DNA of 64,000 bases, taken from the NCBI GenBank assembly GCA_964016885.1, contig OZ024754.1:41416001-41480000 (forward strand), in the 5' to 3' direction. Made by a program: the position numbers and the translations under genes. Below are positions 15,385 to 48,337 of this stretch, piece by piece. The notes under the pieces were generated by a model, which ran no database searches, was not told where the DNA came from, and worked only from the letters and a program-made list of their open reading frames with translations. Source of the stretch: Eledone cirrhosa (lineage: Eukaryota). The number at the start of each line of letters is the position of its first letter. Positions within the stretch are counted from its first letter, which is position 1.

Positions 15385-15502
15385 TCAAAGAGGGTGTGGT
15401 AAGATACCAGGTGGACCATAATGCACCAGAGTACTCAATACTTGGGGTAGTAGAGTGGGTAATAGGAAAAGAGTCAGGGGGGATCCTGACTCTTTTCCTA
15501 TA
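15385..15502. mobile_element. Fold-back PLE-like element, family C (shortest copy)
   Basis: Tail homologous to 17075-17155; hairpin taggaaaagagtcagg/cctgactcttttccta; microsatellite flanks. Confidence 0.8.
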
Positions 15503-15721
15503 TATATACATACATACATACATACATACATACAGAGAGAGAGAGAGATATTCACAATAATAATTCAAGGGTAAGAAATTCTCGAGACAAAGGTATCCAC
15601 ATATGTTTGTACAATTATACAGGTGCAATGGCATAAGAAGATCTGAGAGTAAAGTTGTTAGAAGATCGATTCTTATCATATATATACACACATATATATA
15701 TATATATATATATATATATAT

Positions 15722-15850
15722 GTATAAGTATTGAAGTTTCCATTGAAAATTGAAAAAGTCATAGGAGTGAAGAGTGCTCTATGTAAGTTACAGAGCTAAA
15801 TTTAATGTATAATAAACAATACAATATAATTACCTCATTACCAGAGGTAA
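15722..15850 (+). mobile_element. (TA)n-embedded tail element (family G)
   Basis: gaaGAGTGCTCtatgt..tacagagcta...tacctc; homologous to 62025-62086 (-). Confidence 0.6.
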
Positions 15851-16714
15851 TATATATATATATATATATACACAGGTGTGGGGTGTAGATGTATGTGTGG
15901 GGTGTGTGGGGTGTGTGTGTGTGACAGTGAGTGTGTGTGTGCGTGTGTGTGTGTGTGTGTGAGACAGTGAGAGTGTGTGGGGTGTAAGTGTGTGTGTGTG
16001 TGTGTGTGTGTGATAGTGAGAGAGTGTGGAGTGTGGGGTGTGACTGTGTAAAAGTATATGTAACCTGGTAATTCAATAGCAACAGTTACTGTAAAGTAAA
16101 ACAGCAATTAACAATAGTCCAGAAATAAGTGGCTTTAGTTGAAGTGTGTGTGTGTGTGTGTGTGTGTGTGTGTGTGTGTAAGTGAGGGTGTGTGTGTGAT
16201 AGAGAGTGTGTGTGTGTGAGAGTGTGCATGTGTGTGAGTGTGTGTGTTAGAGTCTGTGAGTGTGTGTGTGCGAGTGAGTGTTTATGTGTGTGAGTGTCTG
16301 TGTAAGTATGTGTGTATGTGACTGCCTGTGTGTGTGTATGTAAGTATGTGAGTATGTGAGTGTATGTAAGTGTGTGTGTGTGTATAAGTGAGGGTGTGTG
16401 TGTGAGAGTCTGTGAGTGTGAGAGTCTGTAAGTGTCTGTGTGTATGTGTGTCTGTATGTGTGTGTGTGTGTGTGTATGTGACTGCCTGTGTGTGTGTGTA
16501 TGAGTGACTGTGTGTGTGTGTATGTATATATGTGAGTATATGTAAGTATGTGCATCTACCCTGCAGCACGACTATATTTGTTGATAAAGGTGACCATAAT
16601 TACACAAACCTAGTTTATTCTGCTATGGAGGGGGAAGCTACAACACAGACAGACACGTAGGAAAGAATAAGGTAAAGAGAACTAAAGATGGATATATATA
16701 TATATATATGTATA

Positions 16715-17054
16715 TGGCTTAGTGGTTAGAGCCTTGGCCTTGCAATCAAAAGGTTGTGAGTTCAATTCTCAGACCGAGTGATGTGTTGTTTCCTTGAGCA
16801 AGACACTTTATTTCACATTGCTCCAGTTTACTCAGCTGTAGAAATGAGATGATAGGGACTGGGGTCCCTATCATTCCACTGCTAAGTGGTCGTGGAGGTG
16901 CCACGGCAAAAAAAAGCACCCAGCACTCACTGTAAATGAGGTTGGTGTTAGGAAGGGCATCCAGCTGTAGAAATCAAGCCAGAATCAGTTCCCGTCCCAC
17001 TCTTGCAAGCAGGGAAAGGCGGACGCAAAATGATGAGGATGATGATGATGATGA
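16715..17054 (+). mobile_element. Full-length tRNA-derived SINE with RTE tail
   Basis: A-box tggcttagtgg, B-box gagttcaattc, tccttgagcaagacacttta domain, hairpin atgatagggac/gtccctatcat, and an RTE-type 3' end with (GAT)n. Confidence 0.88.
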
Positions 17055-17074
17055 TATATATATATATATATATA

Positions 17075-17256
17075 TAACGAAGGAGGTGTGGTAAGGAACC
17101 AGGTGGACCCTAATGCAGCACCAGAGTACTCAATACTTAGGGTAGTAGAGTGGGTAATAGGAAAAAGTTTAACCCCAACGGCAGAGCTCAAGCCGTTTCG
17201 ACGACTATTTCGAAACGGCTTGAGCTCTGCCGTCGGGGTTAAACTTTTCCCTATTA
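17075..17256. mobile_element. Fold-back PLE-like element, family C, with hammerhead 3' halves
   Basis: 47-bp arms 17155-17201 and 17210-17256; GAAA-cggc-ttgagctct-gccg-TC is stem III plus a GUC triplet; tail 17075-17154. Confidence 0.82.
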
Positions 17257-17989
17257 TTATATATATATTTATAACAAAAGTAACGAAGAGCGCCAGTATA
17301 AATACAGGGTCCTCTGGCCATCGTCTAGCTCACTCAATGAATCTGGTGAATTGCAGTTATGCAGCTGCAATCAACTGTTCAGAGTGCATACAGTTAGTTT
17401 ACTGTAGACGGTTGGCTGAGTATAGCTAAGAGAGAGGGGGAGTTAAACAGTCAAAGCACAGCTTGTACTATGGTGTTTAACAGGGAGAAAGTTTGATGTC
17501 ATCATAAGTGGCTAGCTTGACACTAACACAATGTTTCACACTGGTAAGGTGTTATAATAAGAGGAAGTTAAGAGGAGAACAGATGTTTCCAACCAACAAA
17601 GACCCCACTGTCTACTATGATATCTGATAGTAACTCTAACTAACATAGGAACAGAGTTTATTTCAAGGAAATATTTCAATTGCACAAATTATTGGGGTAG
17701 GTGTTAACACCCTGTGTTTAATATTCTTCAACGTCTGAGAAGCATTAGTAATTTTTAACGTTTTATGACTATTTTAAGTCTTAACAATCATTTACCATGT
17801 AAGAACATGTAGTGTTTGATACAAAATGTAAACTTTCTGCACAAAATTAGATTTAGAACTGCACAAAATTAGATTATTGAACATAAATAGAGGTTAACTT
17901 CACATTAAAATAATAATTGCAGAAGAGAGAGAGAGAGAGCTAGTAATATTTTAGACCACTGCTTTACAAACAGATCTGAATAAGTGGAA

Positions 17990-45696: not shown

Positions 45697-45908
45697 TAAG
45701 TACCAATAATATACCAATATGAGTACCAATAATATACCAATATAAGTACCAATAATATACCAATATAAGTACCAATAATATACCAATATAAGTACCAATA
45801 ATATACCAATATAAGTACCAATAATATACCAATATAAGTACCAATAATATACCAATATAAGTACCAATAATATACCAATAATATACCAATATAAGTACCA
45901 ATAATATA
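45697..45908. repeat. 23-bp minisatellite, ~9 copies, within a decayed Meta-SINE
   Basis: Unit taagtaccaataatataccaata; preceded by ggttcaaattc...cttcatccc...gaaataagtacc. Confidence 0.9.
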
Positions 45909-46223
45909 CTAAAACTGATTCAAATAACTATATCCATCCACCCCTTCTCCCTGCAAATATCTCGCCAATAAACAACAAACAACAGAATTAATGTTACATT
46001 ATAGGAATGTTAATGAGAAATGTTTCTTCTATACACAGAGGGCAAGGAATGTGGTGACATCCATACCTTTCTCAAGGACAACAGCAACACAAGTGGACCA
46101 AAGTATTATTTGATGATGATGATGATGATGATGATTCCCACAAATGATATCACACACAGAAGACTGCTCTCCCCCACCCCTTTATACAGAATATAGTGAT
46201 GTAACTCATTCCAGACAATATTA

Positions 46224-46715
46224 TTCTGAGTTCAAATCCCGCCGAGGTTAACTTTGCCTTTATATCCTTACAGGGTAAAATAAAGTACCGGTAATGTACT
46301 GGATCGATTTAATTGACTTTCCTCTCCCCCAAAATTGCTGGCCTTGTACCCAAATCACAAACCATTATTATTTGGCAGTATCGGTAGAGGGTCGGACGCC
46401 ATGCTTTCCAGCATAGTTACGTCCCTTTATGGTCTGAGTTCAAATCACACCAAGGTTGACTTTGCCTTTCATCCTTACGGGGTCGATAAAATAAAGTACC
46501 AGTAATGCACTGGGTAATTGCTGGCCTTGTGCCAAAAGTAGAAACAATTATTATTATTATTTATAGAGTTACGGCCCTTGCCATTCTGAGTTCAAATCCC
46601 GCCAAGGTTAACTTTGCCTTTCATCCTTACGGGGGTCGATAAAATAAAGTACCAGTAATACACTGGAGTAATTGCTGGCCTTGTGCCAAAAGTAGAAACA
46701 ATTATTATTATTATT
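46224..46715 (+). mobile_element. Cluster of three Meta-domain SINEs
   Basis: Copies at ~46224, ~46372 and ~46564. Confidence 0.9.
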
Positions 46716-47802
46716 ATTTCTCTCCAAGATTGATTTCCAGATTGTTCCAGCTCCATTCCAATTCTAGTTGAATCTGTGTGTTCCATTCATTCATCTCCTT
46801 GCCTTAATCTCTCTCTCTCTCTCTCTCTCTCTCTCTACACCAGACATTGCATTCAGTCTGAAGATTGTTGCACTTTAATAACCCCATAATCCCCCCCCCC
46901 CCCCACATCGCATCTCCTCCTCCCACCACTCCTACAAACTCCCACCTCATTCATTCACCCATTTCCCTCTTGTGTTCCTGCAACATATTTCTTGAATAGT
47001 TAACCACCCCACCACCACCACCACATACAACATCACCCTCCCCCCACACACAACCACCACCACCTCACACATCTTCCACCCTACCACCACCACCACCTCA
47101 CACATCTTCCACCCTACCACCACCACCTCACATCTTCCACTCCACCACCACCACCACCACCTCACACATCTTCCACCCCACCCCACCACCACCCCACCAC
47201 CACCACTACCACCACCACCAACACCACCACCACTACCAACACCACCACCAACACCACTACTACCACTACCACCACTACCAACACCAACACCACTACCACC
47301 ACCAACACCACTACTACCACTACCACCACTACCAACACCACCACCACCACCACCACCACCACCACCAACACCACTACTACCACTACCACCACTACCAACA
47401 CCACCACCACCACCACCACCACCACCACCACCACCACTCCCCCCCTTCCTCTCTATCTCATCCAGTCTCAGTTCCATTCCTTACTTCTCCAGACAATAAT
47501 ATCAAGTACATATCATTACACACAGAATTTCTAGGAAACAAAACAAAACATAGAATTCATCTCCAGGTATAGTTTAAATCATTTAATAAATAAATAAAAT
47601 AATTGACAGCATTTAATTAATTTCATTATTTCTTAATTAGATACAAACAAAGCATTTAAAATTTAGGAGATAGAAATTTGGTCATGTTCATGATTTTCCC
47701 AATTACAATATTTCAAATAAAAGACATTGTCTAAGATTTTCAAATAATTTCGAGGATTTAGTAAAAATATATTTACTTTTTCATTATTAATTTGGTATTC
47801 AG

Positions 47803-47980
47803 AGCGGTGGACTGGCAGTATCGGTAGAGAGTCGGACGCCATGCTTTGCAGCATAGAGTTACCGCCCTTTATGATCTGAGTTCAAATCCCGCCGAGGTTA
47901 ACTTTGTCTTTCATCCTTACGGGATCGATAAAATAAAGTACCAGTAATGTACTGGGGTGGATTTAATCGACTTTCCTCTC
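47803..47980 (+). mobile_element. Meta-domain SINE
   Basis: Family match. Confidence 0.9.
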
Positions 47981-48194
47981 CAACCAAAAACGAAAAATCA
48001 GTGATGCATCGGACACCTCTATTGATTTCGGAGCATATCCTCTTTCTGGGGTTTCTGACTCTACGAGTCTATATCGTCCACCTTCATCCCCTTTTACGTG
48101 CCCTTGGGTTGGTCACTGGTTAGTGACGACATCATAATTCTGATGCTACCATTAGACAAATATAAATATATATATATATATATATATATATATA

Positions 48195-48337
48195 TAGGAA
48201 CGAGTAGGACCCCGACGGCTGAGCTCAAGCCGTTTCGACGGCTAATTCTGGACTAAATTAGTCACTCTACTACCTTAAGTATTGAGTACTTTGGTGCGTT
48301 ATGGTCCACCTGGTTCCTTACCACTTTTCCTTCGTTA
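48195..48337. mobile_element. Family C PLE-like insert: inverted short arm plus tail, with no overlap
   Basis: 48195-48263 (-) carries part of stem II, GAAA, stem III and GUC; 48263-48337 (+) is the tail; (TA)n on both sides. Confidence 0.82.

Follow-up and report, generated by a model that had tools for sequence, protein, structure and literature searches.

Two-armed inserts in (TA)n runs of Eledone cirrhosa: likely stubs of a Penelope-like element with a candidate two-primer origin

How do retroelements come to leave short inserts in which two truncated copies of the same sequence stand head to head? This question is raised by three short repeats (c1, c2, and c3), assigned here to a single family C, in a stretch of 64,000 nucleotides of the Eledone cirrhosa genome (GenBank assembly GCA_964016885.1, contig OZ024754.1, positions 41,416,001 to 41,480,000), hereafter the window. 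The structure and element class of family C are already known: PMC8557442 and PMC3846280 describe inverted 5′-truncated copies, tailed at one end, as typical of Penelope-like elements (PLEs). The former names the formation of these inverted structures as an open question, and an explicit published proposal, in the latter, is self-priming on an antisense template. We consider it likely that the family C stubs are heavily 5′-truncated 3′ ends of an endonuclease-bearing PLE, probably of the Hydra clade, each generated when the two opposite strands at a break in (TA)n both primed reverse transcription. Because family C is abundant and holds both outer ends and the junction within 150 bases, it makes the PLE inversion mechanism directly countable, and what makes it valuable is that the open question can be tested genome-wide at little cost.

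Layout of the family C copies

All three copies have (TA)n runs on both sides, span 116 to 181 bases, and follow the same plan (Table 1). In the sense of the GAAA..GUC motif discussed below, the long arm of every copy reaches ∼79 nucleotides (nt) past an internal TTCC|TA site; the short arm, in the opposite orientation, terminates at this site, and the arms meet by their 5′ ends. The tails are 85 to 91% identical (BLAST E values of 1e-20 to 1e-28), with their ends in register, and the outer end of the short arm is TTCCTA in c1 and c3 and TCCCTA in c2. These results bear out two statements of a first-pass annotation of this DNA, namely, that the copies share a tail end and a fixed short-arm end (...ttcc(c)ta) and that they are truncated differently inside. 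The inner ends lie at 15478/15479 in c1 and at 17210-17211 in c2, where the arms join with a 2-nt overlap (microhomology TC); the long arm of c3 is tail only, and the inner boundary of its short arm is at 48259 or perhaps 48263. A BLAST search of the window with c1, c2, and c3 revealed no fourth copy.

Being short, present in high copy number, flanked by TA, and, in c1 and c2, palindromic, such stubs resemble miniature inverted-repeat transposable elements (MITEs) and may be misannotated. However, a MITE-type DNA transposon, which would have terminal inverted repeats and a TA target duplication, is contradicted by the data as a source and appears extremely improbable: one arm is set back 79 nt from the end, arm length ranges from 0 to 47 bp across the three copies, c3 has no inverted repeat, and arms are more alike within than between copies (see below). 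The same observations agree with the earlier view that the arms of c3 do not overlap and that the palindromes are not terminal inverted repeats.

Further copies in public sequence data

Four of twelve listed public sequencing runs were aligned to c2 as the reference. The aligned material comprised 14,114 contigs from X1, which may be the sample that the window derives from and which alone shows how abundant family C is, 8 contigs from X4 (with another organism label), and 20,966 and 21,780 reads from the reduced-representation libraries X10 and X11, respectively. Across these many more copies, both outer ends are fixed and the inner ends are scattered. Loose ends in TA runs pile up at the internal end, before 17157 (1235 reads in X10 and 1254 in X11) and before 17172 (1946 and 1604 reads, respectively), and read depth hardly falls (8339 to 8029) across the tail end into the TA flank. 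Of the joints, junction inserts, and loose-end rows, the alignment tables list 15 (of 39), 12 (of 26), and 22 (of 491), respectively. Eight of the 15 listed joints skip from 17099-17163 to 17210-17227, that is, they have c3-like arms with a gap or an overlap of at most ∼4 nt, and the 12 listed junctions carry inserts of 1 to 40 letters. Two rows joining 17165 or 17169 to 17239 were rejected as junctions and are read instead as a variant subfamily mapped onto the other arm. Exact-pattern scans for family C gave no matches in metagenome contigs, viral contigs, or prokaryote genomes.

Two primers or a single primer with fold-back

In the proposed mechanism, the 3′-OH at each end of a break in (TA)n would prime one complementary DNA (cDNA); the first cDNA would start at the tail end of the element and the second at its internal ...UUCC|UA site. 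Synthesis of both would cease early, often near hairpins upstream of GAAA, and their ends would then be linked through short microhomology or through small inserts of templated sequence; palindromes would be confined to cases of cDNA overlap. RNA left uncut by the ribozyme would provide most of the templates. Same-sense cDNAs would anneal at palindromic spots only, which would also explain symmetric junctions such as that of the insert at 63695.

This explanation follows closely from the biochemistry of PAc, a Poseidon element of Anolis, published in 2024. According to PMC11167929, the purified PLE protein cuts the target on both strands and extends both, its reverse transcription begins at either of two RNA sites that delimit the tail, and ribozyme cleavage is not needed. 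The likeness to family C consists in two fixed reverse-transcription start sites bounding the tail, an AT-rich target, the extension of both strands, and the use of uncleaved RNA as the main template, as proposed here. The main text of the same paper draws no link to head-to-head inverted copies. A two-primer explanation of PLE inversions was not found in print, with most subscription papers beyond the reach of the search.

The competing explanation is a single priming event followed by fold-back: a tail-primed cDNA snaps back (or an antisense template primes itself) and copies itself, the endonuclease resolves the product at the internal TA, and gaps stem from later deletion of the centre. 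PMC3846280 favors self-priming on the antisense template and PMC8557442 ascribes the tail to endonuclease resolution, both in line with this scheme. We scored the nine hammerhead-bearing two-armed inserts of the window, namely, the three family C copies and those at 7239, 8325, 20624, 48364, 61689, and 63695. In agreement with fold-back, the 63695 junction is a near-perfect hairpin centre, and the arms are 95 to 100% identical within a copy in five of the six longer pairs (45/47, 137/139, 72/75, 147/150, and 99/100, with 65/72 in 8325), compared to 83 to 88% between copies (45/54 and 114/130). Such likeness of the arms within a copy, which also counts in favor of two primers, extends to c2, whose arms share minority letters at 17169/17242 and 17171/17240. 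However, in five of the nine inserts (c1, c3, 7239, 48364, and 61689) the short arm holds sequence that is missing from the long arm, reaching further upstream than the latter in both 7239 and 48364, and simple snap-back cannot make such copies. Further, c3 and 61689 have no overlap, and the tail of 61689 is identical to that of 20624 over the aligned part, which means that 61689 is not an old decayed copy. Finally, junction inserts are frequent in contigs and reads. All in all, fold-back seems unlikely.

The two-primer (twin-priming-like) integration suggested in the first-pass annotation is therefore the best-supported model, given c3, 61689, the 8 of 15 listed joints without overlap, and the two fixed outer ends, but fold-back with later deletion also fits the symmetric copies. 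Several points weigh against two primers. Near-symmetric copies (63695 with its 1-nt centre, c2, 20624, and 8325) and the arm identity fit fold-back equally well, and later deletion within a palindrome could mimic non-overlap. The start site seen in vitro is the same on both strands (PMC11167929), whereas in the copies examined here each of the two arms has a site of its own; also, the 79-nt tail exceeds the 30 to 40 bp published for PAc. In addition, no parent element and no PLE open reading frame (ORF) for reverse transcriptase and GIY-YIG endonuclease was found within the window; the stubs themselves are too short for such an ORF.

In the twin priming of L1 elements, an inverted and a non-inverted piece arise from two primers, with a gap or overlap and microhomology at the junction. 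In family C, by contrast, the second start does not scatter but has a fixed position, long overlaps are common, and neither poly(A) nor a readable target duplication is present.

Inner ends at the predicted ribozyme cut

The c1 short arm had been annotated as starting right after the GUC triplet and hence as a second case of an end at the hammerhead cleavage site. The position is confirmed: reads of the c1 subfamily (1722 in X10 and 1828 in X11) continue GAGTCAGGACCCC-GACGGC, which places GUC directly before the GGGG of the c1 short arm. At the junction there are six G and, relative to the subfamily consensus, one extra A, so the parse is good to ∼1 nt. In 61689, the other case in the window, the short arm terminates at the cut inferred from the relative 20624 or 1 nt upstream of it; if the whole arm is parsed as templated, it contains the base that precedes the cut, and a cleaved RNA would not have this base.

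Such ends may, however, be no more frequent than expected by chance. Inner ends coincide with the predicted cut in two of the nine short arms and none of the nine long arms, and seven short arms run through it; the palindromes at 4335, 40016, and 48841 were omitted from this count, having no confident cut assignment. With a 2 to 5% chance per arm, the binomial p value is 0.013 to 0.07 for the short arms and 0.05 to 0.23 for all 18 arms, for a site chosen post hoc. Read depth is flat across the predicted cut (8974 at 17177 and 8978 at 17183) and is not usable as a test of cutting, since the reduced-representation libraries are probably anchored upstream of the cut and arms ending there leave too few letters for joint listing. 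According to PMC11167929, ribozyme-dead PLE RNA inserts normally in vitro and no RNA sequencing reads begin or end at the cut. The end at the cleavage site is thus a lead rather than a result.

Going further, one could imagine that head-to-head inverted PLE insertions arise by programmed twin priming from a fixed pair of RNA sites and that, in a measurable share of cases, the second cDNA runs off the 5′ end of an RNA cut by its own hammerhead, in which case the stubs would record the cutting of PLE RNA in vivo. We regard this as doubtful, if conceivable. If true, the stubs would show in vivo ribozyme cutting that RNA sequencing and the in vitro system failed to show, and an inner-end peak at the cut would be the first sign, in the literature examined, of cut RNA being mobilized.

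Traces of a hammerhead ribozyme

Judging from its motifs, family C is likely of hammerhead origin, but ribozyme activity itself is unproven, as the CUGANGA half has not been recovered. GAAA, GUC, and a 4-bp stem with the palindromic loop GAGCTC make up the 3′ half, and two subfamilies with differing loop letters both preserve the stem. GAAA-CGGC..GCCG-UC is present in the right arm of c2 and in c3, with GUC as the read consensus. Its annotation in both arms of c2 needs a correction: the left arm has GUU, a private change, with the GUC form at 17177 in 8826 of 8974 plus-class X10 reads. The sense consensus upstream of GAAA is AATTTAGTCCAGAAATAGCCGTC. As for the stem II piece annotated in c3, its letters are there but their pairing is not established; TGGACTAAAT, which follows 17211, is the family consensus, making the c3 short arm longer than had been stated.

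The CUGANGA box and the 5′ strands of stems I and II are absent from the three window copies and were not reached in the 22 of 491 loose-end rows listed, where the data extend ∼10 to 20 nt past the reference. The above scans of metagenome, viral, and prokaryote collections also gave no matches to the CUGANGA half. The folding energy of family C is no better than that of shuffles (z scores of −0.3 and −0.5). An Rfam search returned no hammerhead among the best 150 of 293 matches, nearly all of them microRNA models on microsatellites and all below the gathering score. Another candidate hammerhead, built on the GAAA of CCAGAAAT, was discarded, as its cut triplet would have G in place of U.

Alternatively, the family could come from a non-autonomous fold-back master centred on CTGGACTA-AATT-TAGTCCAG that never carried CUGANGA, the copies being partial transcripts or centre deletions and the ribozyme being dead. 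Signs of this hairpin are seen in c3, whose short arm holds GGACTA-AATT-TAGTCC, and in one X1 contig; agreement with the consensus is down to ∼0.5 just past TGGACTAAAT; the failure to recover CUGANGA would be expected; and AGCCGT-CGAA-ACGGCT can form a competing hairpin. However, the drop in agreement may merely reflect read starts and contig breaks, the full core is preserved in sister families of this layout (7239, 48364, 20624, and 63695), and GAAA, the 4-bp stem, the palindromic loop, and GUC are all retained in the two subfamilies despite the differing loop letters. Such a master is, in our opinion, very unlikely.

Dual opposite-strand minimal hammerheads from truncated PLEs were described in 2014 (PMC4209133). 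These dispersed motifs resemble family C in forming opposite-strand pairs, 100 to 700 bp apart, and in having a palindromic loop 3, but the family C copies examined here keep only the 3′ half of the motif. Non-long-terminal-repeat retrozymes are tandem units with a complete hammerhead each, whereas family C consists of single dispersed head-to-head inserts with half a motif.

Assignment to the Penelope-like elements

Family C stubs are likely the tail (3′) ends of a Penelope-like retrotransposon, showing head-to-head inverted 5′-truncated arms in c1, c2, c3, and the read joints, as well as the one-sided 79-nt tail in all three copies. The (TA)n target, seen in 3/3 copies and in TA loose ends of the reads, is a preference common to Hydra and Naiad and hence not diagnostic. 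With no ORF or parent found, identity as a PLE and as Hydra rests on layout and on motifs compared by eye. On these grounds, the parent clade is probably Hydra, and family C likely works like, and derives from, a Hydra-type PLE. According to PMC8557442, elements of the Hydra clade both target (TA)n and carry hammerheads, and the supplement lists a cephalopod family among them. The listed members (Hydra-2_Amil, Hydra-1_Ajap, Hydra-1_Obim, and Penelope-13_HM) share with family C the (TA)n target and a hammerhead near the 3′ end, of which family C shows a putative 3′ half, and Penelope-13_HM has an inverted 5′-truncated copy as well. The 3′ end of Hydra-2_Amil, CTCTAC..GTATTGAGCACT, resembles CTCTAC..GTATTGAGTACT of family C by eye, with no alignment score; likewise by eye, the tail motif described below resembles the 3′ end of Hydra-2_Amil and the 5′ end of Hydra-1_Ajap, and the cores of inserts 63695 and 8325 are laid out as in Hydra.

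On the other hand, loop III of family C has 9 nt and is palindromic, compared to 1 to 3 nt in the listed Hydra ribozymes, and the copies are mere stubs from which neither an ORF nor CUGANGA was recovered. Three family C probe motifs had no match among the listed Hydra consensus sequences. Hydra proteins are marked by DKT, a CxCX5C linker, and no CCHH. The main text of PMC13282606 does not mention Hydra. A peptide search with the sense frames scored none of 53 candidates. The sole match of an antisense frame, to a fish immunoglobulin-repeat protein, was rejected as spurious, and the sense frame open in all three tails was rejected as coding (at most 45 codons, with subfamilies differing by 2 nt upstream).

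Related inserts and other features of the window

Besides family C, the window contains at least nine palindromic or two-armed inserts of other families, mostly TA-flanked with a one-sided tail and several with a hammerhead core (Table 1).

Table 1. Family C copies, related inserts, and tail motifs in the window
Feature	Position	Strand	Description
c1	15385-15500		Family C copy
c1 long arm	15385..15478	-	79-nt tail at 15385-15463 plus 15 nt; stops a few nt downstream of predicted cut
c1 short arm	15479..15500	+	Begins GGGG at predicted hammerhead cut; ends TTCCTA in (TA)n
c2	17077-17257		Family C copy
c2 long arm	17077..17211	-	Tail at 17077-17158 with private 3-nt insert, then internal end, predicted cut 17176/17177 (GUU), stem III with palindromic loop, GAAA, upstream stem start
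c2 short arm	17210..17253	+	GAAA, CGGC/GCCG stem, GUC, predicted cut 17234/17235, end TCCCTA
c3	48197-48335		Family C copy
c3 short arm	48197..48263	-	Longest upstream reach; hairpin GACTA..TAGTC, AGCCGTC, GAAA, stem III, GUC with predicted cut 48213/48214; outer end TTCCTA
c3 long arm	48264..48335	+	Tail only; zero overlap with short arm
Sister insert A	7239..7647	.	Full hammerhead core, head-to-head arms, one-sided tail; relative B at 48364-48720
Sister insert D2	61689..61815	.	Non-overlapping arms; short-arm end within 1 nt of cut predicted from fuller relative 20624-21029
Sister insert E	63695..63960	.	Laid out like family C, with GTATTGAGTAC common to both tails; each arm has a full Hydra-type hammerhead core
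Two-armed or palindromic inserts	4325-4500, 7239-7647, 8325-8501, 20624-21029, 40016-40109, 48364-48720, 48841-49150, 61689-61815, 63695-63960		40016 without tail
Tail motif ACTC-N-GAGTAC	17125..17151	-	Also at 15456 (minus) and 48264 (plus); found in other TA-flanked families
Tail motif positions	4421, 7565, 15456, 15796, 17151, 20707, 48264, 48620, 62040

A motif of the form ACTC/GCTC-N-GAG(T/C)(A/G)C lies a few bases past the internal end in otherwise unrelated families. The pattern ACTC-N12-24-GAG(T/C)(A/G)C has 10 matches in the window, compared to a mean of 2.9 and a maximum of 8 in 200 shuffles, an optimistic figure, as the motif was defined from these same tails. Nine of the 10 matches are outside the ORF of a long interspersed nuclear element (LINE), and 7 are in tails of two-armed inserts; scans with a mismatch allowed in two patterns gave only noise. 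This motif may position the second (internal) reverse-transcription start. It is also found in two TA-flanked pieces (15722-15849 and 62031-62080) in which a long second arm is not obvious; these may be very short stubs or products of a single primer.

Some other inserts deviate from the common plan. At the junction of insert B (48455-48540), ∼40 nt lie between the arms, bounded by a small inverted pair, CCAGGAA..TTCCTGG. A minimal hammerhead is found at 7788 in a single-orientation insert (7686-7920), and a degenerate hammerhead core is found at 41547 in an inverted pair (41465-41847) that is apparently tail to tail.

A short frame at 62006-62392 (plus strand) has no Pfam match; we take it to resemble the C-terminal endonuclease region of an R2/R4-type LINE. 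The LINE mentioned above is a 971-codon stop-free frame at 35277-38192 (minus strand) with an RVT_1 domain and a PHD finger; its best relatives are ∼50% identical, and it is presumably RTE-like.

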